A stretch of DNA of 55,692 nucleotides from a virus (Duplodnaviria > Caudoviricetes), in IMG/VR virus record IMGVR_UViG_3300029787_000058, positions 1 through 55,692 of that record. One strand, 5' to 3'. A model generated the notes under the pieces. It did not search any database. It saw nothing but the letters and a program-made list of their open reading frames with translations, and had not been told where the DNA came from. The position numbers and the translations under genes are program-made. Below, one piece after another: positions 741 to 55,692 of the stretch (its first letter is position 1; each line of letters starts with the position of its first letter).

Positions 741-3068
741 ATGAATATAGTATTCCATGTAGGCTACTCAGCCTCACCTTGGAATTGTTATACTCCAGGT
801 CTTGGAGGAACTGAACAGTGCGTAAATAAATTATCAGCGTCTCTAGCCATTAGGGGTCATAAGTTGTTTATAGTAGGACAAGTAGAACCTACAACTATAC
901 TTACAGAACATACGGATGAAATTGCTATACAATATTTACCTCTTGAGAGTTTTGACAAACTTCCTCAAAAGATAGATGTCCTTGTAGGCGTTTCTTATTT
1001 ACATTTTTATAAGCATTACAATTGTGCTCAAATAAATAAGGTTTTATTTTGGCTACATAACGAAGAGCCTTTCTATTGGTTTCAAGGAGAACAAATGACA
1101 CAAGAAGAAATCTTGGAGGGATATGATTTGTGCGACAATATAATTTGTTTAACTGATTGGCACAAGCAAGATTTTACATCCAGGGCTCGTAGGTGTCAGG
1201 ATAAAATAAAAATAATAGGTAATGGTATTTCTTTATCAGACATTCAAAAAGCAGAGTATAAAGTTCCTGGAAGTTATTTGTATTCTTCTCATCCAGAAAG
1301 AGGGTTGGATAAACTTTTAAACGAATGGCCAATAATAAAACGAAAACGAGCATACGCCACACTTGCTATTGCCACTCCAGCCTACGGCTTAGACTACTAT
1401 AATGAAAACTTTTCAGCAAGAGTTAAAAGCCTAGAGCATCAAAATGTAACTTTTTTAGGGTCTCTTTCTACAGAAGAACTTTATAAAAGAATGGGAACTA
1501 CAGAGACTTGGTATTACCCAACAGACTATAAAGAGACATATTGTATTACGGCTCTAGAGATGATGGCTCATGGCGTTATAGTAGACACTAATGAGATTGC
1601 TGGATTAAAAGAAACCATCAACGGTTTCAACAAATCTACGGACTGGGAAAGAATTAATAAATACATTCAGACCAGGGATTGGTCTAATGTCACTAACGAA
1701 TGGTTAAATTTAATAGATAACAAAATGAGCGCAGGACCTATACTTTCAAAAAAACAACCAACAGCGAAAACAAAAACATTAACAGTTCCCGAAGATCGGG
1801 ATGCGGACATGACATATGTAATATGTTTAGATCCTACAGAACAAAAAAAAGAAGACATTACTAAAAGATTTAAAGAGTTTGGTTTTAAATCTGAATTAAC
1901 TATATGGGATGCTTGCAATGGTAAGACCGGTAAGAATATGCCACCCGATTATGGAGTTTTTAAAGACTGGATAATACCTACCTCTTCTCATCGTTTTTAC
2001 AATAGGGAAATAACTCCTGGAGAAATAGGTTGTGCCGCGTCTCATCACGCTGTTTGGAAAGACGCTTCTGTTAATAATTATAAAAAAGTTTTAATACTAG
2101 AGGAGGACTTTTATGTTAAAAGAAAATTTGAAGCCAGCGAATTAAAAACTGATCAGCATTGGACTCTAATGTATTTCGCTTGTAATTTTGTTCAGCCTCC
2201 AAAAGGAGTAAATAAATATTTATGTAAGCCTAGGTATGCTTATAACGCTCATGCGTATATGCTTACCGACGAAGGAGTGCAAAGAATACTTGAACAAAAC
2301 TTTCATAATTATCTTTTCCCAGTTGATGAGTTTTTGCCTGCTACCTTCTGTGATCACCCACGAGGTGATCTAGGTTTTATAACTCAAGACACTATTGCTA
2401 TGGCCGTAAAAAATGATTTCTTAGGTCAGTTAAGCACTCGTGAAACCTCTACAACAGAACCAACACCGATTAACTGTTTAGCAGATTATTCTTACAAAGA
2501 GTTTGTGAATAGGTTTGTTCATGAGGCTGCTAAAACAAAAGAGTGGGATCTAGTAGTAGATGAAAATATACAAGATGTTTTTTCTTATCCGCTGTTCACA
2601 GAAGAGTTTTGTAGTTTGGTAATTGACGAAGCCAATAAATTAGACAAGTGGACAAAAGAGCGACATGACTACTACCCAACAACAGACATACTGTTAGAGT
2701 CAATAGGGCTAGACAAAACTTATTCTAAGGTTCTAAAAGAGTTTGTTTATCCCTGTGCTATTCACAAATGGCAGTTGCACGGTAAGCCTTGGCCTGATCT
2801 GTCTAGTGAAAACTTTATGATTAAGTATCAAGAAGACGTACAAGGTCACTTGTCTTTACATCACGACAGCGGATTAATATCTTGCGTCCTGACATTGAAC
2901 AGAGACTTTGAAGGAGGGGGCACTTGGTTCTGGAGACAGCAAAAAGTTCATAAAGGAAATGTCGGAGAGATATCTATACATCCTGCTAAAATTACTCATC
3001 GCCATGGGGGAAGACCTATATCAAAGGGCGAGAGATATATAATCGTTTCATTCTGTTCTAGACCATGA
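741..3068 (+). CDS. Three-domain GT-B glycosyltransferase / GT25 (COLGALT-like) glycosyltransferase / PLOD-like lysyl hydroxylase (2OG-Fe(II) dioxygenase)
   Basis: GT-B: GLGGTEQ, YSSHPERGL, ETYCITALE. GT25: GEIGCAASH, LILEEDF, AHAYML, PVDEFLP..F..HP. Lysyl hydroxylase: PTTDI, HHD, FEGGGTWF, HP..ITHRHGG, RYIIVSF. Confidence 0.88.
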   Translation: MNIVFHVGYSASPWNCYTPGLGGTEQCVNKLSASLAIRGHKLFIVGQVEPTTILTEHTDEIAIQYLPLESFDKLPQKIDVLVGVSYLHFYKHYNCAQINKVLFWLHNEEPFYWFQGEQMTQEEILEGYDLCDNIICLTDWHKQDFTSRARRCQDKIKIIGNGISLSDIQKAEYKVPGSYLYSSHPERGLDKLLNEWPIIKRKRAYATLAIATPAYGLDYYNENFSARVKSLEHQNVTFLGSLSTEELYKRMGTTETWYYPTDYKETYCITALEMMAHGVIVDTNEIAGLKETINGFNKSTDWERINKYIQTRDWSNVTNEWLNLIDNKMSAGPILSKKQPTAKTKTLTVPEDRDADMTYVICLDPTEQKKEDITKRFKEFGFKSELTIWDACNGKTGKNMPPDYGVFKDWIIPTSSHRFYNREITPGEIGCAASHHAVWKDASVNNYKKVLILEEDFYVKRKFEASELKTDQHWTLMYFACNFVQPPKGVNKYLCKPRYAYNAHAYMLTDEGVQRILEQNFHNYLFPVDEFLPATFCDHPRGDLGFITQDTIAMAVKNDFLGQLSTRETSTTEPTPINCLADYSYKEFVNRFVHEAAKTKEWDLVVDENIQDVFSYPLFTEEFCSLVIDEANKLDKWTKERHDYYPTTDILLESIGLDKTYSKVLKEFVYPCAIHKWQLHGKPWPDLSSENFMIKYQEDVQGHLSLHHDSGLISCVLTLNRDFEGGGTWFWRQQKVHKGNVGEISIHPAKITHRHGGRPISKGERYIIVSFCSRP

Positions 3069-5183: not shown

Positions 5184-5588
5184 TTATTGTAACACTCCAT
5201 TGACAACTTTACGTGTAGGCTTGTTTAACCTAACACCTGTTGATCCTGAAGCAAAATAACCAGGAGCCTTACTTCCCTCCTTATTCTCCCAGTAGTTAAC
5301 GTAGTGATCATCTTCAAAGTAGAAGGTGTATCCGTTTGTTACTGTAGGAAAGATGTCAGCATTTTTGATATAAGACTCTGCTTGATTCATTAATACTCCA
5401 AGCAATTCTTGGGCTTTATACTTAGACGCAATATCAAAGTGTCGGCTGCCATTATTACCTAAAGGATATAGTGTGTGTTGTATGCCACATTCGATTAAGG
5501 GCCACATGGACTCTCTTGCTTGTGGTTGATCTTGTGCTTGTACTCCCAAAGAGAGAGCAACGACGAACGATAAAAATAGATGTTTCAT
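5184..5588 (-). CDS. Exported protein with signal peptide (lone antisense gene)
   Basis: Probable start at 5588, MKHLFLSFVVALSLGVQA|Q (SPase I-like site); early-type leader AAACCAAATCTT. Confidence 0.7.
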   Translation of the reverse strand: MKHLFLSFVVALSLGVQAQDQPQARESMWPLIECGIQHTLYPLGNNGSRHFDIASKYKAQELLGVLMNQAESYIKNADIFPTVTNGYTFYFEDDHYVNYWENKEGSKAPGYFASGSTGVRLNKPTRKVVNGVLQ

Positions 5589-5634
5589 TTTATTAAGATT
5601 TGGTTTCACTGCTGTAAACCTAAGCATAATTATT

Positions 5635-5669: not shown

Positions 5670-6812
5670 ATGAGTACTGAAAGCAACATGGAACAGGCAG
5701 TTAAAGATGCAGGTTTCGAGATAATGAGTGGCCCACCTTCATCAACGGAGCAGGCCCAGACTACAGAAACTCCAGCACCTCAAACGGAAGGAGTTCCTGA
5801 AAACAATACACCGACTGAACCCGCAGTTCAACAAACAGCGGAACCAGTTGAGCAAGCACAACAGGAACCCGCGCCTGTACAAGAGCAAGTGGCACAAGAG
5901 TCACAACCTCAAGTAGAAAGCGGAAGTTCTATGACAACCGAACAATCTGCTACTAAGTTAGATTTTCTAGATAGCCTGGAAACTTCCGAAACGGAAACTC
6001 CCGCTGTTGAAGAGTCTGATGATGTTGCAGAGTTAGCGTCAACTCTAGATCCTAGAATCAAAGTCATTGCTGATTTTGTTGAGAAGACAGGAAGAAACCC
6101 AGAAGATTGGTTTCGTTATCAGTCCTTAGAGCCATCCGAAATGGATGACAGTACTGTAATGCGAGTCCACCTTGCGAGTGAATATCCTTCTTTAGGTAAC
6201 GATGAAATTGATACATTAATCAATTCAAAGTACAAGACAGATGAATCATTGCACAACGATGAAGAGGTGAAGATTGCAAAATTACAATTGAAGATTGACG
6301 CGCAAAAGGCTAGGCAGGCGATTGACACACTCCGTAGTGAGTATGTTGCACCGGCTGTTGAACCGAATAATGATGTGAGTGAAGATGGGTCTAATCCATT
6401 TGATACGTCATGGCTACAAGAAAGCGGACGCTCGCTGGCAGGTTTAGATAAGATATCTTTTGATTTGCCAGGTGGAAAAGAGTTTCACTTTGGTGTGGCG
6501 GAAACGTATCGTAATGAGTTAAACAAATCGAATACGAACATGAATGAGTACTTTGATAAGTACGTAGGTGATGATGGGTCTTGGGATCACGATCTCTGGA
6601 ATATGCACAGGACGGTTACAGATAACCTTCCAAATATTATAGAGAATGTGTATCGACAAGGCATGAGTGACGGTCAAAGAGGCATAGTCGAAAAGGCAGC
6701 CAACATAGATCCAAACGCACCAGCAGCACCTGTACAACGTCAAGACAACTCAGTTGCTAACCAAGTGCTTGACGCATTAGGAAGGCGGCAACCATTTTTG
6801 AAAAATATGTAA
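5670..6812 (+). CDS. Putative capsid scaffolding protein
   Basis: Acidic, E/Q/P-rich disordered N-terminus; immediately precedes the major capsid gene. Confidence 0.6.
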   Translation: MSTESNMEQAVKDAGFEIMSGPPSSTEQAQTTETPAPQTEGVPENNTPTEPAVQQTAEPVEQAQQEPAPVQEQVAQESQPQVESGSSMTTEQSATKLDFLDSLETSETETPAVEESDDVAELASTLDPRIKVIADFVEKTGRNPEDWFRYQSLEPSEMDDSTVMRVHLASEYPSLGNDEIDTLINSKYKTDESLHNDEEVKIAKLQLKIDAQKARQAIDTLRSEYVAPAVEPNNDVSEDGSNPFDTSWLQESGRSLAGLDKISFDLPGGKEFHFGVAETYRNELNKSNTNMNEYFDKYVGDDGSWDHDLWNMHRTVTDNLPNIIENVYRQGMSDGQRGIVEKAANIDPNAPAAPVQRQDNSVANQVLDALGRRQPFLKNM

Positions 6813-6831
6813 ACATTTAAAATAAAAAACA

Positions 6832-8220
6832 ATGGCATTAACATCAAGCCCTCCAACGTATAATGATAGCAAGCCTGCTGTCTTTAGACAACTGGATCCA
6901 GCGAAATACTCTTCTTTAGGAGATTTCATTGACGAAATCAACGCTCCCGATAACAGGGATCAGTTGGTTAAAACTTATGGCTACCAACAAATTTCTGGTG
7001 GCTTAACAGGATTTTTATCCTTAACCGGTGCTATTAGAGCATCCGGAACAGCGGACGAAGTTCAGTACTGGGAAGAGACTAGATTGCATTCAACTGCAAA
7101 CGTATCTCCAACAGCAACTGCTGCAATCGGAGCAACATCTGTAACTGCTACTAAAGCAACAGGAGTCGCTTCAGTTCTTCGTTTGAATGACGTAGTTCTT
7201 GTACAAGGTGAAGATCGTTTCATCGTTGCTGCTATTTCCCCAACAGGAGAGATTGCTTCAACAGCGACAGCAACTTACACGTTTGAATCACTAGCAACTT
7301 CAGGACTTACTGCTACAGGAAGCACTGCTGCTGTTGACATTCCTATTATTGGTAACTTGTTTGGACAAGGAACTGATCAAAACAAAGGTTACTTAGAGAG
7401 TAACGTAATCAAGCGTACTAACCCTTATAATATTATCAAGGAGGTATTCAAGGTTACAGGATCTCAAGCAACTAATATTGGATGGATCAACGTAGGTAAC
7501 GGAGATTACAGATGGTATGTTAAAGGAGAGATGGACACTCGTGCTCGTTTCTTAGACAAGCGTGAAATGATGATGCTTCTCGGTGAGAAGATCGGAAACG
7601 CTGCCAACCTAAATGCAAATGTTTCTACTATCACAGGTGGTGAAGGTTACTTCTCTGCTATTGAGAATAGAGGTATTGTTAATGACGGACAGATAGACAA
7701 CTTTACTGAGATGGATCTTCTTATTGCAGAACTTGACAAGCAAGGCGCTGCTCCTGAGTACGCTATGTATGTTAACACTGCTCAAGGATTAGCCATTGAT
7801 GATATGGTTGCCTCATTGAACGGTGCAGCAGGTTTCGCTAATACTACTAATGGCCTTAGTGCATTTGGTGGACGTGGAAACGAACTCGGTTTTGATTCGT
7901 TTAAGCGTGGAGGATATACTTTCCACAAACACGCTTGGAAACTTCTTAACGACCCAACTTTGTTAGGTCTTAGCGATTCTAAGTACAAAGGTGCTATGAT
8001 TCCTTTGACTACAGTTGTTGATCCAAAGACTGGTGATCGTGCCGCTGCTTTGGAACTTAACTACAAGGATACAAACGGATACAGCCGTGAGATGGAGCAC
8101 TGGATGACTGGTTCTATTTTAGGTGTCAATAACACAAATACTGACGACCTTCAATTTAACTATCGTTCTGAGTGTACTCTAGTTACTCGTGCTGCTAACC
8201 AGCATATCTTAATCAAGTAA
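6832..8220 (+). CDS. Major capsid protein
   Basis: 462 aa; YWEE.RLH, WINV...YRWY.KGE.DTR.RF, LGFDSFKRGGYTFHK and YRSE..L....AN typical of Bacteroidota podovirus capsids; strongly biased codons; followed by a hairpin. Confidence 0.8.
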   Translation: MALTSSPPTYNDSKPAVFRQLDPAKYSSLGDFIDEINAPDNRDQLVKTYGYQQISGGLTGFLSLTGAIRASGTADEVQYWEETRLHSTANVSPTATAAIGATSVTATKATGVASVLRLNDVVLVQGEDRFIVAAISPTGEIASTATATYTFESLATSGLTATGSTAAVDIPIIGNLFGQGTDQNKGYLESNVIKRTNPYNIIKEVFKVTGSQATNIGWINVGNGDYRWYVKGEMDTRARFLDKREMMMLLGEKIGNAANLNANVSTITGGEGYFSAIENRGIVNDGQIDNFTEMDLLIAELDKQGAAPEYAMYVNTAQGLAIDDMVASLNGAAGFANTTNGLSAFGGRGNELGFDSFKRGGYTFHKHAWKLLNDPTLLGLSDSKYKGAMIPLTTVVDPKTGDRAAALELNYKDTNGYSREMEHWMTGSILGVNNTNTDDLQFNYRSECTLVTRAANQHILIK

Positions 8221-8236
8221 TCACTTTAGATTCTTA

Positions 8237-8271
8237 GGGAACGGAGGGGGTTTTGCCCCCTCCTCACTCCC
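8237..8271 (+). terminator. Hairpin after capsid gene (terminator or mRNA stabiliser)
   Basis: GGAGGGGG-ttttg-CCCCCTCC with outer GGGA/TCCC; U-tract is displaced. Confidence 0.6.
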
Positions 8272-8297
8272 AAATAACTTTTTAATTATATTAAATT

Positions 8298-9119
8298 ATG
8301 TCACAATCAAAAACAAAGAGCGCACCTGCTGCGCCAAAAACAACAAAGGCAACAGCGCCTAAGACTTCTTCAAGTCGCTTCACTCCCATTAAGAAAAAAT
8401 CAGTCAGAGATTCATTAGTAATTTTTGAAATTATTAAAGGCGGGGGTATCGTGTGTAAATTAAAATCTGAAATACCTGTGTATGATAGAGAGACTGGTAA
8501 GGTGAGACAGATTCGTTACTGTCCTGGAGAGTCTAGTATTTTTAAAGACGAACAGGGTGAGGCATCCGTTCGTTCACACGTAGTATTTAGAGATGGACTT
8601 TTAAGTGTACCTGAAGAAAAGGCTAACCTAAGAGATTTTTTATACGCACACCCTTCTAATGCTGCCAATGGCGGTGGTTTATTTCGTGTGCTAGATAATA
8701 CTAAACATTATGAGGCTGAAGTCGATAATGAATTTTTGGTTCATGATGCGGTTGCATTAGTTCGTAATAAAGAATTAGACGAAATACTTTCAGTCGCCCT
8801 TGCTTTAAATATTAACATACAGCAAACTACCTTAGAGATAAGAAGAGAACTTCTTAAAGAGGCTAAGAGTAATCCTCAGAACTTCATTAGAATGTTTGAC
8901 GATCCTAGGGTTAAAGTTCGATCGGCTATTATTCAAGCGAAGGACTTTCAAATTATAAGCATGAAAAATGATGGTGCTTACTGGTTTGACAGCGGCAACC
9001 TAATACTCTCTGTTCCACCGGGTCAAGACCCTGTAGACATTTTAGTTAGGTATTGCTTGACTGAAAAAGGAACTACATTATACGAGGAGATCCTTGCGAG
9101 ACTAGAGAAGTTGTCTTAG
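8298..9119 (+). CDS. Conserved structural protein
   Basis: 273-aa ORF after capsid; RQIRY.....SIF.DEQ and L..HP.N motifs. Confidence 0.55.
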   Translation: MSQSKTKSAPAAPKTTKATAPKTSSSRFTPIKKKSVRDSLVIFEIIKGGGIVCKLKSEIPVYDRETGKVRQIRYCPGESSIFKDEQGEASVRSHVVFRDGLLSVPEEKANLRDFLYAHPSNAANGGGLFRVLDNTKHYEAEVDNEFLVHDAVALVRNKELDEILSVALALNINIQQTTLEIRRELLKEAKSNPQNFIRMFDDPRVKVRSAIIQAKDFQIISMKNDGAYWFDSGNLILSVPPGQDPVDILVRYCLTEKGTTLYEEILARLEKLS

Positions 9120-9128
9120 ATTTGTAGT

Positions 9129-9212
9129 ATTCATAATGGATTTTTAGGACGTACAAGGATTTGGTTTTCCACGTTCCAACCAAGGGGGGTTCCGCAAGAA
9201 CCCCCTTTGTTA
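9129..9212 (+). ncRNA. Candidate ~85-nt small RNA
   Basis: Bounded by promoter TAGATTTG (9117-9124) and terminator (9183-9216); no ORF of note; GGACGU/ACGUUCC stem presents AAGGAUUUGGUUUU. Confidence 0.55.
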
Positions 9213-9216
9213 TTTT
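9183..9216 (+). terminator. Intrinsic terminator
   Basis: AGGGGGGTTC-cgcaa-GAACCCCCTT followed by TGTTATTTT. Confidence 0.85.
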
Positions 9217-9218
9217 CG

Positions 9219-9226
9219 TATATTTG
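9219..9226 (+). promoter_or_regulatory. -7 promoter TATATTTG for tail operon
   Basis: Consensus match upstream of 9246. Confidence 0.7.
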
Positions 9227-9245
9227 CTAAAATGCTTAAAAGATT

Positions 9246-10001
9246 ATGGCAAGTGTACAAAGAGTTTTTGACGCAGTAAAAGACATAGCAAATAAAGATC
9301 AACGAGGATTTGTAACTCCCGCTATCTTTAACCAGTTTGCTGGCGTGGCGCAAATGAACGTGTTCAATCGTTTGTTTGGGGAGATAACTATGAGCAATAG
9401 ATTAAGAAGATCTAACATTGATGGACCTAGAATTTTTTCTAGATCTAAAACAGTACAAGAAGACCTTTCTGTTTTTTCTAAAAAAAGCACACTCACTTTG
9501 AGCGCATCAAAAGAGGCCACTAAGCCTACTGATCTAGCGAGAGTGGTATCAATAAATACGATAGGTAAAAAAATATTAGGAGTAGAGGAGCAAGCACAGG
9601 TTCAGTTAGTATACAACGAGGATCATATAGACAGAATAATCAACAGCGATTTATCTGCACCCTCTGACTCGGCCCCTGTTGCTTTAATATCAGAGAAGAT
9701 TGAAATATTTCCAAACACTAATACAAGTATTGGATCAATTGTTTTAAGGTATTATAAGTTACCAGAAGGTCTTGTTCCTACAACCCAGGCAAAGACAACC
9801 TCATCTCCAAAGTTTGGTTACACAACAGCGGTAGCCGGAGTTGAAGTTTATGATGCCACAAATAGTGTAGACTTCGAATTACCAGAACATTATTTTGCTG
9901 AATTAGTAGAAGAAATATTAGTACTAGTTGGAGTCAACCTTAGAGATAAAGATGTTTACGCATACGCAAGCAATGAAGTAACCAAAGAAAATAATTCTTA
10001 A
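9246..10001 (+). CDS. Putative tail tubular/ring protein
   Basis: NKDQRGFVTP..FN..A..AQ and DFELP motifs; position in tail module. Confidence 0.55.
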   Translation: MASVQRVFDAVKDIANKDQRGFVTPAIFNQFAGVAQMNVFNRLFGEITMSNRLRRSNIDGPRIFSRSKTVQEDLSVFSKKSTLTLSASKEATKPTDLARVVSINTIGKKILGVEEQAQVQLVYNEDHIDRIINSDLSAPSDSAPVALISEKIEIFPNTNTSIGSIVLRYYKLPEGLVPTTQAKTTSSPKFGYTTAVAGVEVYDATNSVDFELPEHYFAELVEEILVLVGVNLRDKDVYAYASNEVTKENNS

Positions 10002-10744
10002 TGAGTCAGAATTACATACCAATAGACTACGTTGTCAATGACTATATAATGAGTATTGATGATGATGACTATGGCGCTACCCCTTCGGATTACATGGTTA
10101 GGCAATATGCCTTACGTGGAATTAGAGAGTTTGGCTTTGACATAAGTCATAATATTAAAACAGAAATACTAGATGTTAATTTAAATCTAGGAACTGTAGA
10201 ACTTCCTTGTGACTATGTTGACATGGTTAAGTTAGGACAACTTGGTCCTGATGGCCTGGTGTATGTGTTTGCTAACAATCCAAACATGAACATCTTAAAC
10301 AATCAGCCTGCTGAAACAATGCCTAACTATTTGCTAGGCTTTGACTCCTATGTTTTTCAAAACTTTATGTACGAGTCTACTCAAGGAAGGTTGTACGGAA
10401 TGGGTGGAGGTCAAGGTGCTGGTGAGTATAGAATAAACCTTAATGAGAATCGGATAGAGATTGCAGCGATATCATCAACAAGCAAGGTTGTATTGGAGTA
10501 TATCTCTGACGAAGCAAAGTCTAGCAATCCTTGTGTACCTGTGATGGCAGAGCAGGCATTGAGGGCATACATATATCATAAAATTATAGAAAGAAAATCT
10601 AGTGTTCCTTTGGGAGAAAAGCAAAGGGCACGTGCAGAATATTACAACGAAAGGAGATTAGCCAACTCACGCATGAAGTCCTTTAATAAATTTGATGCGC
10701 TTAGTGTGAGCAGGCAGAACTTTGTCCTTAGCCCTAAATCGTAA
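10001..10744 (+). CDS. Putative tail ring/adaptor protein
   Basis: LPCDYV, VVLEYISD, AEQALRAYI; TAATG coupling to previous gene. Confidence 0.55.
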   Translation: MSQNYIPIDYVVNDYIMSIDDDDYGATPSDYMVRQYALRGIREFGFDISHNIKTEILDVNLNLGTVELPCDYVDMVKLGQLGPDGLVYVFANNPNMNILNNQPAETMPNYLLGFDSYVFQNFMYESTQGRLYGMGGGQGAGEYRINLNENRIEIAAISSTSKVVLEYISDEAKSSNPCVPVMAEQALRAYIYHKIIERKSSVPLGEKQRARAEYYNERRLANSRMKSFNKFDALSVSRQNFVLSPKS

Positions 10745-10746
10745 TC

Positions 10747-13700
10747 ATGCCAAGAATAGACAAGTTAATACCCAGGTATCTAAACACTGACGACGATGAG
10801 CGCCTGATTAAAAAAACAGAGATGACCGATGCTCAAAACATTAGGGTCGCTGTTGATGTTGAGAAGGATTCATTGGTGTTAAAAAACGCCTGGGGAAATA
10901 CTAAAAGGTCTACTACTATTGAGAATGGATCCGCCCTAACAGGAGTAAGCGTTACATTGGGTGTTGTTGCTGATGACAATGCGGGTCAAATATATTACTT
11001 CGTTTATAATTCAAATCTAGATCATACAATATTTAGATACGATCAGAATGCAAAGAAGACATTCATTGTATATCAAAGTTCTATCCTGCAATTTTCAGAG
11101 GATGGGTTTATAGATGCAGACATTATAAGACTAGCAAACAACGACATCCTTCTTTACTTTAATGACGGACGTAGCCAGCCTAAAAAGATTAATGCTACCC
11201 TGTGTGAAGAAAGTGTTAGTGGTGTAGGTGGATATCCTTCACTATTCACCACAGGAACTGTTCAAGAGAGGCTACAATACATAACAGTGGCAAAAGCACC
11301 ACCACTTGTAACCCCTGTTCTTACGTTTGTAAACAACTCATCATTTCCACAGAATGAAATATTTACTAAGAACTTTCAGTTCGCATATCAGTATGAATAC
11401 TTCGATGGAGAGCAGAGTGCGTTAAGTCCATACTCAAGATTATCGGTTGCTCCTAATCAATTAAAGGATGGATTTAATAATGTGGGTGAGCAAAACTTTT
11501 TTAATCAAATCAATATTAGTGTTACCAATAGCCCGGCAGATGTTAGTAAGATTAAAGTCTATGCAAGGCTTGGGGATAAGGATGCTGCATTCTTTTTAGT
11601 CGATACCATTGACAATGTAAGTGGAACAACGACTAGTGTTGTTGAGTTTAGAAACGACAGTAACTATACTGGTTTAAGCGCAACGGTTCAGGATAAAATA
11701 TTCGATAGTGTTCCTCAAGTTGCTGACGCTCAAGCCATATCAAACGGAAGACTTTTTTATGGAGGCTATACGGAGGGATATGATGCAACATCCACAGATC
11801 TTGTAATTCAACCGAACTATAACGCAAAACCACCTACTGAAGATGTAACAGTTCAACTCCATCCAGATACAGATAATGAGTTTACTATAGATACAACCAG
11901 TATTACTACACCTGTTCCAGAAAAAAGTCGTTTGTTTTTATCATTCACCTGGAACGATGGCGCTGTAATAATAAAAAACAATTTAGGAGATAACAATGAC
12001 TATAATTTCTTAGGTGCTCAAGGCAGTAATGAAATAGCAGTACGAAACACTTTAACTTCACGAACTTTAGATACTACTTTTCCTAATGAAATAAAGGCTT
12101 TAGCAGGGTTTAGATATAATAGTGGCGGGTTTGGTGGAATAAATGTAACTGATGGTGTCTTAAACAGCCCACCTAATGTTAGATTTATTGTACAAAAAGG
12201 AACATCGGACACTAATGAAAAAGATATTGGTGTTCGAAAAATAGTAAAAGGTTTACGAGTTATTAGTTCTGGTGTTCAGTTTCGAGAAATCATTGAACTA
12301 GAAGCCGGGGACACTAGATCGACTATTGTTAAGAAAGTTAGAAATGCCATAGCCAAAAACAGGCCCATTAGTTTTGATCCTCAGTCTGGAGAGGCTGGGT
12401 TTAGTGTTTTAAAAACAGGAGGTCAAACAAGTGGTAGTCAAGAGAACGCATCTTTCAAAGGGCAAGGAACAGCCTTTGCTCTCCAGCAAAATCAAAGAGA
12501 ATCCGATACTTCAGGAATTTTAAGATTTAGGGTTAAGATAGAAAAAGTTACCTTCCATATAAATAAATTAACATTTGGAGATAAGGAGTCAGAAATAATA
12601 AACCCTAAAGGTATTGCCTCATCATTTGACATAATTGAAGGCAGCACAAATAGTGTAGGACAAAATAATCAAATTAGAGGTATAACAAGTTTTACTCCTA
12701 CTTTAGGTGGTCAGTTTGTAAAAGCCTCCAATCAAAACGTAGATAAAAGAGCCGCAGTTGTAACAAGAAACGGAGCCTATGTTTCAACAGGAGCGTGTTT
12801 CGTTATTGCTACTAATCAAATGTTTGGAGACAGATGCTTTAAGTCCGGATCAACACATCAGTTTGGTATAGTACATTTCGACAACAGAGGAAGGGCAGGA
12901 ACTGTAGAGCCTGTAGGTGGAGAGGTATTTATTGAACATACAAACAATAGGGCCAATCAAAATGATAATGATGGCTTTGCAAATGTTACCGCACGAATAA
13001 GAGGAACTGCCCCACCATGGGCTGAGAGGTACTCAATAGTATACGCAGGTCAGGGTAGTATTATAAATAAAATACAATACACCATAGGGGGTGCTTACGT
13101 TGCGACTAACGACAATAGTAATGAAGGATCGTTTGGCGCTACAAAGTCCATTTACTTGTCTCTAAACACCCTTCAGAGCAAGGCTAACTCATATGACAAT
13201 CAGTTGGGTGCTGATATTAATTATGGATATGCTTCAGGTGACCTTCTTAGAATCGTTCAATATGGTAATAATCAAAAATCTACCGCAGAGTGGAGGGTGT
13301 CTAAGGTCGTAAGTTTATTAGCAGATCCTTTAACTAATCCTCTTTTAGATCAAAGCAGTAAGGCCGCTATAGAAAACACTACCGGAGACTTTATTGTAAT
13401 AGAAGATAATGGAACTCTTGGTTTTAATTATAATAGCATATCCAATGATAACAGCAACTGGGATAACAAGTGTTTGATTGAAATATATCGTCCATCAAAA
13501 GCATTTGAAGATTTATTCTTTTATGAAATAGGCGTTAACAATTCTATTTCTAGTTCAGGTGTTTATGGAACGTCACGGTCATCTACTACAATGAATATAG
13601 AGTTGTTTGATACTCCTGTTGTTCGACAGCCGTTTAAGTTTTATTCATCACAAAAACTTTATAAGGGTGATACAATAAGAAACGACGGAACTACGAATGA

Positions 13701-33348: not shown

Positions 33349-33930
33349 TTAATTTCTTACTATTCCCCAAACGATTGCTTGGAATTCATACCCTCGTACA
33401 CCTACCATCTCTGCACATTTTAGTGTTAATTGTTCTAACTGCTTGTACCTGAGTGGTGTCAATCCTGATTCAATAGTCTTGCCGAAGCAGGCTCTTAGAT
33501 GCCATACATCTATGGTCACTTTGCTAGCATCTAGTTCAGCAATGTTTTTTACAAAAGAATAGGTCTTGGGTGATGCCTGATCGATCCCTCTCTCACCTTT
33601 AGCAATCTCAAATGCTTTGTTCTTATTGCTATGGAATGTAGATACCTTGACATCTTCGGGATTCTTACCCTCATTAACCGCTTTTAGAACTGTTCTAGTG
33701 TCAATGATATTTCTCTCCCATTTGTTTCTAGGACTTAGTGCGCTGATTACTTGTGCAACAACAGCGGGATCATAGTCTAATTGCTTTCCCATGTCTATAC
33801 AGATTTGGTTAGCATTCTTGTACCATTGCATACCTTCTTGTGTATGTTGGTCTGTACGTTTTTCGTACATCTCTAGAAGATTCTTTTTTATCTTCCTCTT
33901 GTGATAAGGTGATAGTGATTTGATTTTCAT
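33349..33930 (-). CDS. HhH-glycosylase-like phage protein
   Basis: G..WY, ALSP...W..N, KT.SF..N, VTIDVWH.R, QA..W motifs. Confidence 0.55.
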   Translation of the reverse strand: MKIKSLSPYHKRKIKKNLLEMYEKRTDQHTQEGMQWYKNANQICIDMGKQLDYDPAVVAQVISALSPRNKWERNIIDTRTVLKAVNEGKNPEDVKVSTFHSNKNKAFEIAKGERGIDQASPKTYSFVKNIAELDASKVTIDVWHLRACFGKTIESGLTPLRYKQLEQLTLKCAEMVGVRGYEFQAIVWGIVRN

Positions 33931-33975
33931 AATTAAGGATTTGGTTTTGGTTTCTCGTACGTATATAATATAGGG

Positions 33976-34179
33976 CTAACTTGTCAGTTCATGCAATTCT
34001 GAAGGATTAGTAGTGCCATATCTCTTCTCGTATGTTTTTAACATAGCCATTATTGTATCGTATAGGGCTGAGTCTTCAGGAAGGGACATCCCCTCGTTAC
34101 TTCTCTTTTTCAGAGCAAATAGTTCTTTGTTTAGAACAATCAATGTTTGAATTTCATTTAAATTTTTAGATAAAATCAT
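33976..34179 (-). CDS. Hypothetical early protein
   Basis: 67-aa ORF in operon. Confidence 0.5.
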   Translation of the reverse strand: MILSKNLNEIQTLIVLNKELFALKKRSNEGMSLPEDSALYDTIMAMLKTYEKRYGTTNPSELHELTS

Positions 34180-34286
34180 GATATTATAAGTTTAATTATT
34201 GTATAAATTACTGCAAAGTAAGCAAGAAACATAACAACAATTCCTAAAATACCTACAGCGATCGTCATTCTCGGTCTCAATCTCAT
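34176..34286 (-). CDS. Single-TM micropeptide (36 aa, not in track)
   Basis: MRLRPRMTIAVGILGIVVMFLAYFAVIYTIIKLIIS*; ATGA overlap at both ends. Confidence 0.5.
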   Translation of the reverse strand: MRLRPRMTIAVGILGIVVMFLAYFAVIYTIIKLIIS

Positions 34287-34453
34287 GCATTCATGGCTTT
34301 AACATATTCGTCATACTCTGCAAGAAATTTTTCTTTGTACTTAGGATCAGTCATTGCTAGTGCTAATTCTCTGATCCAATCTTCATCATGCATAAGGCAA
34401 TTATTTCGGTCAACTTCATACATATAGGTTAGCATCTCTTCGATATCCTTCAT
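34283..34453 (-). CDS. Hypothetical early protein (56 aa, not in track)
   Basis: MKDIEEMLTYMYEVDRNN...; ATGA coupled. Confidence 0.55.
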   Translation of the reverse strand: MKDIEEMLTYMYEVDRNNCLMHDEDWIRELALAMTDPKYKEKFLAEYDEYVKAMNA

Positions 34454-34689
34454 AACCCTAAGTGATATTTAAGTGTTCCTATTGCCATCTCATCCTGATA
34501 CATTTCTCTCGCTTGATCTTCAATAGATCTCAGCGTGTACGGCTCAACATCCTCTACTCTATCTAGTAGTTCATTAAAGTAGTCTTGGGCCTCTTCGGTA
34601 TAAGAGCCGTTTAAACGTGCTTTACCTTGGAAGTGTTGATCGACATACTTGCCAACCGCCTCTATGATTTCAATTTGTCTGTCTGTCAT
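34450..34689 (-). CDS. Hypothetical early protein
   Basis: ATGA-coupled ORF. Confidence 0.6.
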   Translation of the reverse strand: MTDRQIEIIEAVGKYVDQHFQGKARLNGSYTEEAQDYFNELLDRVEDVEPYTLRSIEDQAREMYQDEMAIGTLKYHLGL

Positions 34690-35227: not shown

Positions 35228-35494
35228 CTATTTAACTTTAAAATTGAATGTTCGCACTTTGCGGAACGTGTTATCAGGATTAATACTCGTCAACTTGACT
35301 ACCTGTAATCCGGCACAGGTCATTCTCTTCTCTGCAATCTCTTCTCCACCAAAACAGCGGAAGAATTCTTGCGTATCTAGATTAGTAATTTTATCGAAAG
35401 TATCCCAATCAATGGTACTTACTTTTCTTTTCTCGGACATCTCGCCAATGGTTTGGCTTGTCTCGATCATCTCAATATCAAAATTTTGTTTCAT
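35228..35494 (-). CDS. Hypothetical early protein
   Basis: 88-aa ORF with early leader CCAAATCCAAACC-ATG. Confidence 0.65.
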   Translation of the reverse strand: MKQNFDIEMIETSQTIGEMSEKRKVSTIDWDTFDKITNLDTQEFFRCFGGEEIAEKRMTCAGLQVVKLTSINPDNTFRKVRTFNFKVK

Positions 35495-35570
35495 GGTTTG
35501 GATTTGGTTTTTGGTTCATGTACGTATATAAATTAGCAAACATTTTTTTGCATTCCAACAATTATTTTTT
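35495..35570 (-). promoter_or_regulatory. Repeated early promoter/leader (also 33931-33975 and 37670-37745)
   Basis: Minus strand TA..TT.TATACGTAC...AACC..AAATCC...ATG in three places; two copies have an upstream TTGGAA...GCAAAAAA. Confidence 0.65.
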
Positions 35571-35593
35571 TTCCCATAGGGAACTTTTTAAGG

Positions 35594-35779
35594 TTAACCT
35601 AGGTCGAACGTATAATGTAAGTCTTCAGCCATTCCGCTAACTTTTTCCAGTAAATAAATGGCATCTTCCGCAGGCCGGATAAGTTCTTCCCGAATATTTA
35701 AATCGGCTAGTGTTATTTTTTCGTCTTCTAATTTTTCAAGTAGTTCGACTAAGGTTGCAAGATCAGATGTAGTATTCAT
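35594..35779 (-). CDS. Acidic early protein, tandem paralog A
   Basis: LVELLEKLEDEKITLADL.I...I.P...AI.LL.KV shared with 35883-36062. Confidence 0.7.
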   Translation of the reverse strand: MNTTSDLATLVELLEKLEDEKITLADLNIREELIRPAEDAIYLLEKVSGMAEDLHYTFDLG

Positions 35780-35799
35780 AATTAATTTATTTAAGGTTT

Positions 35800-35882: not shown

Positions 35883-36062
35883 TTATTTAAGGTTAACTTT
35901 TTGAAGTAAAGTGATGGCCTCTTGTACAGGGTCAATAATGTCATGCTGAATATCTAAATCGGCTATTGTTATTTCACCATCATCTAATTTTTCAAGTAGA
36001 TCAACTAAGTTGTCAAGATCTGTTATTCCTAATTCTAAATTTCCAAAATCAATAGTATTCAT
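35883..36062 (-). CDS. Acidic early protein, tandem paralog B
   Basis: Probable start MNTIDF at 36062; the track's start at 36101 lies inside the ribozyme. Confidence 0.7.
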   Translation of the reverse strand: MNTIDFGNLELGITDLDNLVDLLEKLDDGEITIADLDIQHDIIDPVQEAITLLQKVNLK

Positions 36063-36080
36063 AATAAATTTATTTAAGAT

Positions 36081-36163: not shown

Positions 36164-36469
36164 CTATGACCAGACTCTCATTCCGCTTTGCTTGAACCAT
36201 TCATCATCCGTTAGGATGTCTTCGGGGTCTTTTAGTTGTTCCCACATTGACTTTAAATCGGAAACATCCTTTTGATTCTGCGTAAAGTTGTCGACAAAGT
36301 CAGATCGGTAACCATACCAAGACTCTGCAACGTGAATTTGAGAACATTCTGAATAAACACTAACATATGGTTCTTTTAGACTGCACCACCATCCGTTATC
36401 TTCTTCATCCCATAAGTCTTCGACTAGAGGATGATTTTCTATCAATTGAATTAATTTTGCTTTTCTCAT
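36164..36469 (-). CDS. Hypothetical early protein
   Basis: 101-aa acidic, Trp-rich ORF. Confidence 0.6.
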   Translation of the reverse strand: MRKAKLIQLIENHPLVEDLWDEEDNGWWCSLKEPYVSVYSECSQIHVAESWYGYRSDFVDNFTQNQKDVSDLKSMWEQLKDPEDILTDDEWFKQSGMRVWS

Positions 36470-36480
36470 GATTTAATAAA

Positions 36481-36927
36481 TTAAAGGTTAATTGAACTTA
36501 AAGGTTTCATCTCTTCTTGATAATCAAATGCTATAAAGGCTTTTATAGTTGAATCCTCTACACAGCGATAACCAAGATATATCAGATGCAAAGCCATATG
36601 GTTATAATAATTTTCAATTATTTTGTCCTCTAGGTCTTCGGACAAATTGTCTGTCTCTAAAAGAGATTTAGCCAATGAAAGTACATCACCATTATAGATT
36701 GGTAAATCAATAATACTTGGTAAGCCACTTAGCCATTCGGCTAGATTCTTTTGAATTGGAAGGTGGCAGTTATTCTTATGAATAAATTCCTTTAGGAATG
36801 TCGTGAACAAAAACTCCATCTTTTCAGATGGTGTATCTGTCTTCACTTGGTACTCTGTACCATCGATCTTGTCTAGTAAATAAGTATAGATATTATTCCT
36901 ATACTGCGAAGAATTTGTCTTTAACAT
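36481..36927 (-). CDS. Hypothetical early protein
   Basis: EWLSGLPS.I.LP.YN pattern. Confidence 0.65.
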   Translation of the reverse strand: MLKTNSSQYRNNIYTYLLDKIDGTEYQVKTDTPSEKMEFLFTTFLKEFIHKNNCHLPIQKNLAEWLSGLPSIIDLPIYNGDVLSLAKSLLETDNLSEDLEDKIIENYYNHMALHLIYLGYRCVEDSTIKAFIAFDYQEEMKPLSSINL

Positions 36928-36947
36928 GGTTATGGATTTTTAAGTTT

Positions 36948-37342: not shown

Positions 37343-37669
37343 TTACTTGAGATTATTTTTTAGAAACCTTTTCAAGGTTCTAGAGATTAGAGTGAGATCA
37401 TATTTTAACTCGTCAAGTTCAGAGAACTTATTTACGTTATATCTTTTTCTGAATGAAAAATTGTCCATACCTCCTTCGGAGTCTATGTAAACAAATTGGT
37501 TATTCGTTCGAATAAGGTTTACTTCTAAGTAAGAGGGCCAAGTTGATCCTCCGTAGGAGCAAGGAATTTCACTAAAGGAGTCTTCGTGTTCTTTATATAC
37601 TCTTACTAATTCTTTAGCAGTGTTAACTCTCTTGAGTAATGTAGTAGATATGGTTCTTTTGTTTTTCAT
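37343..37669 (-). CDS. Hypothetical early protein (first of early operon)
   Basis: 108-aa ORF downstream of early promoter at about 37700-37745. Confidence 0.6.
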   Translation of the reverse strand: MKNKRTISTTLLKRVNTAKELVRVYKEHEDSFSEIPCSYGGSTWPSYLEVNLIRTNNQFVYIDSEGGMDNFSFRKRYNVNKFSELDELKYDLTLISRTLKRFLKNNLK

Positions 37670-37955
37670 GGTTTGGATTTTGTGGTTCGTCTTTCGTACG
37701 TATACAATTTAGCACCGCTTTTTTGCCATTTCCAAAAAAAATTTGCAAATAATTTTCTTACGTAGTAAAAAAGTTTTTCATCCAGTTTTGGGGCAGTCTT
37801 GAGCCTCGTACGTAATCAATATCACTTTGAAGAATGATCAAGTCTAGACACAATCTTGATTCATGACACGTACCTCTAACTTGTTAAACAAGTCAAACAA
37901 TGTGTCCCCTCCTCTGGAGGGATAGGTGTTTTCGGTTTGGTGGGAGGTTGATTGT

Positions 37956-39268: not shown

Positions 39269-39511
39269 TTATTTTATTGTAGCCTCAAGGAGTCCACGTT
39301 CGTATTCTAGTTGTTTCTCTATGGATATTATTCTATCCTCAAGCCTGTTTATAACCTGAACCTTGTTGTCAAGTCTTTCATGTACCATAGTTAACTCTGT
39401 TTTCAAAGAGGTGAACTCAGCGAATAGACCTCCCGCTGTAAATATTGCGATGACAAACCATAAAAAGATCTGCCAGTTTTTCACAAAGGGGTTATATGCT
39501 GTGTTACTCAT
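39269..39511 (-). CDS. Small membrane protein, paralog of 92-328
   Basis: 63/70 amino-acid identity with many synonymous differences. Confidence 0.85.
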   Translation of the reverse strand: MSNTAYNPFVKNWQIFLWFVIAIFTAGGLFAEFTSLKTELTMVHERLDNKVQVINRLEDRIISIEKQLEYERGLLEATIK

Positions 39512-40147: not shown

Positions 40148-40321
40148 TTATCCACGAGTTTCAAAGGCGATGCCATTCAATACTAATAACTCTCTTCCGT
40201 CTCTACTTTTTAATACTTGAGAAAAAGCAGGAACATCTTTAGCCATGGGAGCGAATACTTCTTTACCAGAAGATAAATTTTTATTCTCTGCAAATGGAAC
40301 TTGCTTACGATACTTTGCCAT
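40148..40321 (-). CDS. Small hypothetical protein (57 aa, not in track)
   Basis: MAKYRKQVPFAENK...GIAFETRG*; TAATG-coupled to endolysin. Confidence 0.55.
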   Translation of the reverse strand: MAKYRKQVPFAENKNLSSGKEVFAPMAKDVPAFSQVLKSRDGRELLVLNGIAFETRG

Positions 40322-40989
40322 TATAACAATTTTAACATTTCTATTATCTCTGGTTGAGGGAATATATCTGACTTATCCTTTCGCACAGAGTTGTGTGTAA
40401 AGATACCACTTTCTCCTCGTAATGCTTTCTTTGAAACTCCCCACATATCTCTAGCATTGTATGTTTTATCAATACCATAATGATCTATCCAATAACGCAA
40501 TAGGTTTTCTACGCTACGTATTTGCTCATCTGAATATCTATGATAATGTCGCTTTCCTTTGTAAGGTTCTTCCAGGCTACACACCTCTTCTTTTGGAACC
40601 TCCCTGTTTACGTAGTTAAAAAACTTACCACTCTTTTCTTCTAAACCACCCCATGCACAGAGTTCTATACCTATAGACTTTTTATCTAATGGCATATAGT
40701 CGAGGTTGTAAGATTCGAATACCTCTCTTTTTATTCCAAGATGGTATGCCCAGTATTTACTAGAAAACGCCTGAACAATTTTACCATCCCCTTCTTTGGC
40801 TCCGGTGTTTGATATGCACACACAAGTAGCGATCCTACCTCTGCTATCATTGTTCCAGTGATTTACTGTGTTTACACCACTAGCATTTCCTGCTGTATGG
40901 TGTAGGTATACCTGATTCTTCTCCTGGGCATCTTTAATATATTCATTAGAAGAAAGTTTAACCTGTAATATGTCGTCAAGAAAACTCAT
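40321..40989 (-). CDS. Endolysin, N-acetylmuramoyl-L-alanine amidase (Amidase_2)
   Basis: YLHHTAG, WAYHLG, SIGIEL, THNSVRKDKSD..P. Confidence 0.88.
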   Translation of the reverse strand: MSFLDDILQVKLSSNEYIKDAQEKNQVYLHHTAGNASGVNTVNHWNNDSRGRIATCVCISNTGAKEGDGKIVQAFSSKYWAYHLGIKREVFESYNLDYMPLDKKSIGIELCAWGGLEEKSGKFFNYVNREVPKEEVCSLEEPYKGKRHYHRYSDEQIRSVENLLRYWIDHYGIDKTYNARDMWGVSKKALRGESGIFTHNSVRKDKSDIFPQPEIIEMLKLL

Positions 40990-41015
40990 AGTGTCTCATT
41001 TGGTTTTATAATGAT

Positions 41016-55460: not shown

Positions 55461-55692
55461 TGGCAACAACGATAAATTGGGATTGTAAAACAGTAGAGTG
55501 CTACTCTAGTATGGGTGGCCACACAGATGTTATATATCAAGTTCATTGGAGGGTAACTGGAACTTCAGACACACTAGATCCTGATGGAGACGCTTACATG
55601 GATTCTTCTATAGGGATTCAGGCTTTGGACACAAGTGACCTTAGCGGGTTCACCGCGTTTTCCAATCTAACACATTCCGACATTATTTCTTG
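55460..55692 (+). CDS. Partial second allele of 334-678, directly TAATG-coupled to fibre gene
   Basis: MATTINWDCK...; truncated by window end. Confidence 0.85.
   Translation, partial: MATTINWDCKTVECYSSMGGHTDVIYQVHWRVTGTSDTLDPDGDAYMDSSIGIQALDTSDLSGFTAFSNLTHSDIIS

Follow-up and report, generated by a model that had tools for sequence, protein, structure and literature searches.

A candidate small antisense RNA at a structural-gene junction of a putative Flavobacteriia phage and its likeness to the start regions of minus-strand genes

The junction between two plus-strand genes of a phage genome appears to hold one promoter more than the two genes need. The genome, IMG/VR record IMGVR_UViG_3300029787_000058, is 55,692 bases long and was analysed whole (completeness estimate 98%); this entire stretch is called the window below, and it probably belongs to a marine phage of Flavobacteriia. 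The junction is a gap of 126 nucleotides (nt) between gene 8298-9119, whose product of 273 amino acids (aa) falls in phrog_34748 and is without known function, and the structural gene 9246-10001. A promoter-like box overlaps the stop codon of the first gene, a hairpin and a strong terminator follow, and a second box stands just past the terminator. As the second box already serves the downstream gene, the first must have another purpose. What might that purpose be? We propose that the unit is a trans-acting antisense RNA of ~88 nt that would block the start regions of small genes on the opposite arm of the genome, a proposal which we regard as evenly poised between right and wrong. It is the proposal of an original prediction made from the letters of the window, here extended by an arm directed against start codons and by comparative support.

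The extra unit at the junction

The unit and its boundaries comprise five features.

9117-9124, plus strand: -7 box TAGATTTG of the putative promoter P1, of the Bacteroidetes sigma-A type TAnnTTTG, overlapping the TAG stop of gene 8298-9119
9129-9146, plus strand: putative 5' arm, with little structure in the fold; antisense to a leader end, AUG and first codons (AUUCAUAAUGGAUUUUUA)
9147-9176, plus strand: hairpin 1; its stem pairs 9147-9152 with 9171-9176, a 3-bp helix lies further in, and the loop and its surroundings contain the G/U-rich 14-mer AAGGAUUUGGUUUU (9155-9168)
9181-9218, plus strand: intrinsic terminator (stem-loop 9181-9209) and U-rich tail
9219-9226, plus strand: second -7 box TATATTTG, promoter P2 of gene 9246-10001, which bounds the RNA and lies outside it

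The box, hairpin and strong terminator described in the original prediction are all found. The terminator stem-loop, in which 12 pairs (7 G-C) enclose a loop of 5 nt ahead of the tail TTATTTTCGT, lies within the minimum-energy fold, and positions 8000-10500 hold 8 terminator-like sites against 1.5 ± 1.5 in shuffled sequence. The segment 9125-9218 folds at -28.7 kcal/mol, compared with -19.5 ± 3.0 for its shuffles (z -3.03; none of 200 as good). Much of AAGGAUUUGGUUUU is left unpaired in the loop of the hairpin 9147-9176, and the loop and 5' arm, which carry the complementary sites described below, are largely unpaired in the fold. An excerpt of PMC9723704 gives the span of the -7 box as -12 to -5 and the median 5' untranslated region in a flavobacterium as 24 nt; with the box at -12 to -5, the predicted start falls near 9129 and the RNA would measure ~88 nt. 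P1 is a match to the -7 box only, with a TTG ~21 nt upstream that was seen by eye inside coding sequence, and TAnnTTTG as such occurs in the genome at chance level (59 copies; 61.3 ± 7.7 expected).

The context of the box in related phages is more informative than its frequency. The syntenic junction was taken from 86 related viral contigs, giving 87 loci in all. In 47 loci, and two further anomalous ones, the gap is short (60-92 nt), and the terminator in it precedes a TAnnTTTG promoter that serves the next gene. In the other 38 loci, representing 26 distinct sequences, the gap is long (110-132 nt), with 35-50 extra nt ahead of the terminator. Of the 38 long-gap loci, 36 carry a TAnnTTTG box at the stop codon of the upstream gene (offset 0 or +5); none of the other 49 does. 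The TA and TTTG of this box never change, five variants are seen at its two N positions (TAGATTTG, TAAGTTTG, TAATTTTG, TAAATTTG and TATATTTG), and the 8 nt that follow it vary freely among the long-gap loci. P2 is found just past the terminator in nearly all 87 loci, and the terminator occupies the same position in every relative inspected, phi38:1, elemoA and Panino among them. Box and additional RNA-like body thus occur together, with P2 after the terminator, which is the anatomy of a small transcription unit. At one locus (L061) a different gene, of 210 codons and with a 35-nt gap, lies upstream of the junction, suggesting that a gene was inserted between structural genes.

The hairpin is conserved as a structure and, among close relatives, as a sequence. 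In the lineage called group B, seven distinct sequences share a 10-pair stem in which three pairs are changed on both sides, and the 13-nt loop core TCTGGTTGGTATC is invariant in all seven. A group A variant (L036) retains the stem with a different sequence. In the close relative G001 hairpin 1 is identical at 29 of 30 positions, compared with 75% and 78% identity for the flanking genes, and in loci L002-L007 hairpin 1 is invariant but for one loop base. G001 lacks genes 36062 and 35779 (minus-strand genes are named here by their start coordinates where convenient), and its 5' arm is different. A GGUU core is present in all lineages, either in the loop or in the unpaired stretch that precedes the terminator.

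A search of positions 8900-9400 against Rfam 15 gave nothing near the gathering score (RAGATH-22, 17.2 bits (120.3); MIR856, 9.8 bits (297)), and the DNA contigs of X9 and X12 contain no sequence variants inside 9117-9245. A coding reading of the minus strand over the unit was rejected, as no reading frame is conserved: the frame opened by the minus-strand ATG, counted by eye, has 10 codons in the window, 1 in L002-L007, 6 in G008 and 3 in G009.

Likeness to the start regions of minus-strand genes

The candidate targets of the RNA are suggested by complementarity between its two largely unpaired parts and the start regions of eight minus-strand genes.

33931-33973, minus strand: leader and promoter cassette of gene 33349-33930 (DUF7178), a D16 copy with the 14-nt site 33935-33948
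35495-35536, minus strand: second cassette copy, leader of gene 35228-35494, with the exact 12-nt site 35500-35511, 5 nt upstream of ATG 35494
37670-37712, minus strand: third, more diverged cassette copy, leader of gene 37343-37669, with an 8-nt site only (AAAATCCA)
36928-36942, minus strand: leader of gene 36481-36927, where the 11-mer ATGGATTTTTA (9136-9146) matches 36932-36942, 4 nt upstream of ATG 36927
36050-36068, minus strand: small gene 35883-36062 around its start, where 19 nt align with the 5' arm antisense (2 mismatches, ATGs in register)
35767-35785, minus strand: small paralogue 35594-35779 around its start, where an exact 13-nt site spans the ATG
5589-5606, minus strand: leader of an isolated gene, start taken as 5588, with the exact 10-nt site 5597-5606
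40990-41007, minus strand: leader of the endolysin gene 40321-40989, with the exact 10-nt site 40998-41007, 8 nt upstream

Every complementarity quoted in the original prediction (14, 12, 11, 10, 10 and 8 nt) is present in the sequence. The longest is exact, 9155-9168 answering to 33935-33948, 4 nt upstream of the ATG of gene 33349-33930. To these can be added a 13-nt match of 9125-9137 to both 35770-35782 and 36053-36065, which runs across the ATGs of both paralogues. Exact sites of 14, 13, 13, 12, 11, 10 and 10 nt thereby lie at, or at most 20 nt from, seven minus-strand starts; a random 56-nt window matches on average 0.25 start regions at 10 nt. Read in antisense, the window unit is a mosaic, of which one piece, AAAACCAAATCCTT, equals the cassette leader and a second, TAAAAATCCATTATGAATACTA, equals the leader end, ATG and codons of 36927, 36062 and 35779. 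Gene 35228-35494 is supported by phrog_16226, and gene 40321-40989 is taken as the endolysin on the strength of its Pfam Amidase_2 match; the endolysin site is the weakest match and may be due to chance. ATG 5588 is an internal ATG, and the equivalent ATG starts the G001 homologue, where a 14-nt site with 1 mismatch is found.

Some features of these genes may be recorded here. The longest frame of gene 5184-5627 starts at 5627, and the start equivalent to 5588 gives a signal-peptide-like N-terminus, MKHLFLSFVVALSLG; the gene is a lone minus-strand gene in the plus-strand structural arm and a conserved candidate target. The segment 35594-36157 is a tandem duplication (repeat families D13 and D14) that encodes the small acidic paralogues 35594-35779 and 35883-36062, starting MNTT and MNTI.

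Are such matches more than an AT-rich background would supply? Bare match counts are no more than chance. The 14-mer with at most 3 mismatches occurs 18 times against 13.05 ± 3.34 expected, a number reached in 12 of 100 shuffles, and the 11-mer with at most 1 mismatch occurs 5 times against 3.0 ± 1.73. The placement of matches at gene starts is not random: of the same-strand exact matches of at least 10 nt, 7/11 lie at minus-strand gene starts, compared with 0/3 in the other orientation. Among 2418 genome windows of 92 nt, 17 have a 14-nt leader match and 15 match at least four leaders at 10 nt or more.

A broader test used the unit as defined by synteny in 12 complete or near-complete genomes. 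Its reverse complement was aligned with all start regions (-40 to +15) of the same genome, the five best local alignments were summed, and the sum was compared with all genome windows and with dinucleotide shuffles. The genome-window P is 0.006 in the window itself (G000; 5564 windows), 0.017 in G001, 0.003 and 0.002 in G008 and G009, which form group C, 0.021 in G014, 0.006 in G011 (the genome of locus L034) and 0.022 in G013. The corresponding shuffle z values are 3.3, 3.4, 6.7, 5.2, 2.6, 4.5 and 3.5, so that z for the trimmed unit lies between 3.3 and 6.7 in 6 of the 12 genomes. The score was reached by 1 of 400 shuffles in the window, by none of 400 in G008, G009 and G011, and by 0-2 of 400 across G001, G011, G008, G009 and G013. 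Those genome windows that outscore the unit are almost all true early start regions. Tested as a whole segment, the junction exceeds z 3.4 in 5 of the 12 genomes and in none of five short-gap control genomes, in which the same segment gives 0.1, 0.4, 2.0, -0.05 and 0.8. The sense strand, taken as a further control, scores lower in 10 of the 12 genomes, with the best single alignment tied in G014 and one point higher in G012. In G008 and G009 the unit antisense is colinear over 26-31 nt with several early start regions, ATG in register. An excess of matches over the AT-rich background is thus not seen in the counts; placement in the window and alignment in several genomes speak for it, and the energy test of the window, described below, does not.

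The likeness is also specific to lineage. When units are scored against the start-region sets of different lineages, the matrix is block-diagonal for the window lineage and group C: window-lineage units score 101-117 on window-lineage start regions versus 82-100 on others, and group C units 112-133 on their own versus 81-111 elsewhere. Antisense likeness that includes the start codon is seen in the window lineage, at L034 and in group C, with a different sequence in each. G011 has none of ten tested early proteins in common with the window, and its different unit matches its own start regions. Covariation between seed and leader, which the original prediction had named as a check, is suggested at the level of lineages; no base-by-base compensatory pair was found and groups A and B were negative. 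Compensation base by base is invisible because loop and leader are both unchanged in close relatives. For the group B loop TCTGGTTGGTATC (L047-L054) no conserved complementary site was found in three group B genomes. Two loop candidates in G006, a same-strand 13-nt copy with 1 mismatch in a plus-strand gene and a 2-mismatch site just after the ATG of 33982-34509, were rejected, as neither recurs in G007; the partner of this loop may be a host molecule.

Some of the loop sites lie in a repeated cassette. Repeat family D16 is a 37-nt cassette present three times, at 33937-33973, 35500-35536 and 37676-37712; in the minus-strand sense its order is TAnnTT(G/A)T box, ATACGTACGA, A/C-rich leader, ATG (families D16 and D19). 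G001 keeps the 33930 site and the cassette leader, with 8 nt inserted. In the 37669 copy the box is TAAATTGT, which agrees with the TAnnTTGY variant that an excerpt of PMC9723704 gives for an alternative promoter class of F. psychrophilum. The early-promoter motif TATACGTACGA, allowing at most 2 mismatches, occurs 21 times against 9.67 ± 3.59 expected; it is absent from the unit and not common to groups A, B and C. A separate motif, AACCTT(T)AA, precedes several small minus-strand genes by 15-30 nt, both in the window (upstream of 36164-36469, and at 35560-35600) and in groups B and C; in the window, G006 and G008 it may be another early-class promoter or leader element.

The genes on either side of this proposed relationship occupy opposite arms. 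Structural genes lie on the plus-strand arms and include PHROG virion proteins, a protein with a crAss muzzle domain and a giant with collagen repeats. The minus-strand arm at 25.7-41.0 kb holds replication genes, encoding a DnaB-like helicase, a PDDEXK nuclease and a DnaA-like helix-turn-helix protein, together with about thirty further small genes whose function is not assigned. TAnnTTTG boxes are found at most 60 nt upstream of about 11 plus-strand genes and of two minus-strand genes at 41-42 kb; in the minus-strand cluster at 25.7-40.3 kb such a box stands at one gene only, and other motifs are used.

On these grounds the gap between 8298-9119 and 9246-10001 would hold an independently transcribed gene for a small non-coding RNA. 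The host-type box TAGATTTG would start transcription near 9129 and the terminator would end the RNA near 9214-9218. The loop would pair with the A/C-rich cassette leader (at 33930, 35494 and, weakly, 37669) and with the leader of 5588, and the 5' arm with 36062 and 35779 at their leader ends and AUGs, and with 36927 in its leader. Pairing would cover the AUG or the 5-20 nt before it and so keep the 30S subunit off. Bacteroidetes mRNAs are described, in an excerpt of PMC6847099, as without Shine-Dalgarno sequences, and mRNA structure as tuning initiation; in such a host the target mRNAs would rely on open leaders. The RNA would lower translation of its target set whenever the promoter class of the structural genes is active. 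Transcription, both ends of the RNA, its timing, pairing in the cell and repression are all predicted from sequence.

Weighing the explanations

The idea of a trans-acting RNA draws support from the features of the sequence, the conserved box, the covarying stem and the likeness to start regions. Against it stand the energy test, groups A and B and the 5' arm, together with several smaller points. The 5' arm is identical to that of G001 at only 19 of 31 positions and is unconserved in the closest relatives. The second segment named in the original prediction, 9136-9146, accordingly has its 11-nt match to the leader of 36927 and no conservation even in the closest relatives. Loci L034 and L068 lack the exact box. 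The labels 'late' for the unit and 'early' for its targets are drawn from gene order and promoter class only. The weak 10-nt 'targets' include the endolysin, and endolysins are late genes as a rule. The metatranscriptome, from two oligo-dT runs in which 0.12 and 0.08 of sampled words are present, gives contigs on 6800-10800 at 9401-9581, 9759-10028 and 10336-10528 only, all outside the unit; having no coverage there, and being unable to show ends, they are silent on it. The window region was moreover chosen post hoc during repeat hunting, which leaves the relatives as the unbiased tests, and several of these come from one lineage.

The energy test and the two lineages with little or no signal gave the following figures. 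When the body of the RNA was shuffled and the terminator kept, the best ddG in the window was -15.8 (to 33930) against -13.2 ± 2.3 kcal/mol, with 7 of 60 shuffles as good, and the sum of the top five was -60.7 against -54.6 ± 7.9, with 13 of 60 as good; a comparison of pairing energies with shuffled controls, called for in the original prediction, is thus not significant in the window. It is marginal in G008, where 4/50 and 3/50 shuffles were as good. The result implies that any G/U-rich body of like composition pairs almost as well with A/C-rich leaders. RNAduplex, applied to the full RNA, produced long implausible structures and was dropped. In the alignment test the genome-window P is 0.49, 0.11 and 0.18 in group B and 0.33 and 0.26 in group A. 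The shuffle z values are 0.2, 2.0 and 1.9 in group B (G006, G007 and G015, the last two being marginal) and 0.3 and 0.4 in group A (G010 and G012); neither group has a clear phage target despite conserved hairpins.

These observations must be set against three other explanations. It is very unlikely that the likeness is a product of chance, by which a T/G-rich spacer next to a terminator would share short words with A/C-rich leaders in an AT-rich genome of 55.7 kb. Exact matches of 10-14 nt are indeed common (a 10-nt match to some leader is found in 767 of 2418 windows), the pattern counts are at chance level, the energy test is not significant and the region was selected post hoc. Yet the likeness returns in related phages whose units were chosen purely by synteny (0-2 of 400 shuffles as good in five genomes), it is absent from the 5 short-gap controls, and the hairpin is better conserved than the neighbouring genes; lineage matching, shuffle scores and short-gap controls already make chance an improbable answer. 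The RNA could instead be real and have its main job elsewhere, on host mRNAs or other host RNAs, or through a protein bound by the conserved G/U-rich (UGGUU) loop, so that its likeness to phage start regions would be partial and lineage-specific. We consider this distinctly unlikely, given the strong likeness to own start regions, with ATG in register, in three to four lineages. It would explain why groups A and B keep the box, the covarying hairpin and the invariant loop and yet have no significant phage target, why the GGUU core is common to all lineages, and why the energy test hardly singles out the start regions of the window itself.

The remaining explanation dispenses with a separate RNA. 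The extra segment would belong to the 3' untranslated region of 8298-9119; its hairpin would serve stability or processing, the terminator would set the ratio of upstream to downstream expression, and the likeness would be an inverted relic or a regulator site acting at the level of DNA: either the remains of a captured early gene start, or a site at which a phage regulator blocks early units and also acts on P2. A terminator followed by TAnnTTTG is the ordinary layout in all relatives, phi38:1, elemoA and Panino among them; the unit antisense resembles a complete start region with its ATG, as an inverted duplicate would, and the 14-mer core recurs at four leaders, as the consensus of a protein site might. 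What this leaves unexplained is why a stop-codon box marks just those loci that have the additional 35-50 nt (36/38 versus 0/49), and why the stem shows compensatory changes. The minus-strand ATG opens no conserved frame, a decaying relic would lose the match to its own lineage, and the window unit is a mosaic that matches different genes rather than a single consensus site. We therefore hold the 3'-end explanation, with its DNA-level variants, to be fairly unlikely, and return to the antisense RNA in what follows.

Relation to other phages and to known regulators

The structural module of the window has distant protein kinship to podoviruses of Flavobacteriia: all 83 hits in a collection of cultured phages are below 60% identity, and the distant relatives are Cellulophaga phi38:1 and phi40:1, the Flavobacterium elemo phages and the Maribacter phage Panino. 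A DNA search of the same collection with positions 8298-10001 gave zero matches. The window shares with the phi38:1-like and elemo-like podoviruses the gene order, the terminator position and the TAnnTTTG promoter before the next structural gene. In the cultured phi38:1, Panino and elemoA, by contrast, the gap is of the short kind (annotated genes 83-137 nt apart), and both the stop-codon box and the additional hairpin are missing. No lysogeny genes were found among the phage proteins scanned.

Other features of the record lie outside the junction. Its ends repeat, with 1-90 equal to 55372-55461 (100%, 90 nt) and 321-566 to 55447-55692 (96%, 246 nt; families D15 and D10), and the right-end copy is without the 230 nt that hold gene 92-328; these terminal repeats indicate that the record, classed as 'linear', wraps around and captures a presence/absence variant. 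Positions 107-328 and 39269-39490 form an inverted pair (222 nt, 77% complementary), the plus-strand gene 92-328 having a paralogue in the minus-strand gene 39269-39511, and the start regions downstream of each are also alike. Gene 50514-55460 encodes a protein of 1648 aa with 17 matched stretches of collagen triple-helix repeat, probably a fibre, and its DNA contains many repeats with a 9-nt phase (families D1-D9). Gene 741-3068 encodes a 775-aa protein with glycosyltransferase-like and 2OG-Fe(II) oxygenase-like parts (PHROG hits), which may modify DNA or the surface.

Antisense control of phage genes has a precedent in c4, which acts on a single mRNA target (ant) in its own operon and serves the immunity of temperate phages. 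The c4 RNA of P1 and P7 is short and structured, and its loops pair around the ribosome binding site and block translation (PMC12197685, in excerpt). Pairing of a loop with the start region of a phage mRNA is likewise proposed for the present unit. Unlike c4, its sites lie 24-31 kb away on the opposite strand and belong to several genes (33.9-41.0 kb, and 5.6 kb), and it occurs in a phage without lysogeny genes among the scanned proteins, whose host does not base initiation on Shine-Dalgarno pairing. No sequence or Rfam relationship to c4 was found in the search of Rfam 15.

In logic, the proposed RNA would resemble RegA of T4, which competes with the ribosome at ~30 early and middle mRNA starts, at sites that lie at or just 5' of the AUG and are A/U-rich and unstructured (PMC3014915, in excerpt). 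RegA is a protein of 122 aa, whereas the unit is a candidate base-pairing RNA; the likeness is one of analogy and not of membership, and the unit would belong to neither the c4 nor the RegA class. VpdS of VP882 and PreS of lambda are phage small RNAs of ~50-90 nt that act in trans on several mRNAs (PMC12197685, in excerpt), as is proposed here from sequence for another small phage-encoded RNA. They differ in being Hfq-dependent, in coming from temperate phages of Proteobacteria and in acting mainly on host genes or on the choice between lysis and lysogeny. The searched review PMC12197685 contains none of the terms 'early genes', 'lytic phage' and 'Bacteroid', and small RNAs of Bacteroidetes phages are absent from it. 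A literature search that did not take in the transcriptome papers on Cellulophaga phi38:1 gave no known case of such an RNA.

A wider form of the proposal can be stated for the clade, and we give it somewhat less than an even chance. A clade of marine podoviruses of Flavobacteriia would encode, in an RNA of ~85-90 nt, a counterpart of T4 RegA; driven by a promoter of the structural-gene type and carrying an inverted, co-evolving copy of the consensus of early start regions, this one RNA would shut off the translation of many early mRNAs in a host without Shine-Dalgarno pairing, and it would have been born by reverse capture of an early gene start beside a pre-existing terminator. Should one of the rival explanations hold, the locus would be an ordinary terminator-promoter junction with a conserved 3' hairpin.

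Accounts of gene timing in virulent phages usually invoke promoters, sigma factors and repressor proteins. If the proposal is true, these phages would use a switch of another kind, and a very economical one, in which a single RNA recognises a start region common to many early mRNAs. The RNA would also give a first access to post-transcriptional control in phages of Bacteroidetes, whose hosts initiate translation without Shine-Dalgarno pairing, and it would yield a testable rule, namely that its body reads as the reverse complement of early start regions in the same phage. Such a rule could be used to find these RNAs, and to mark the early genes, in the genomes of uncultured phages.

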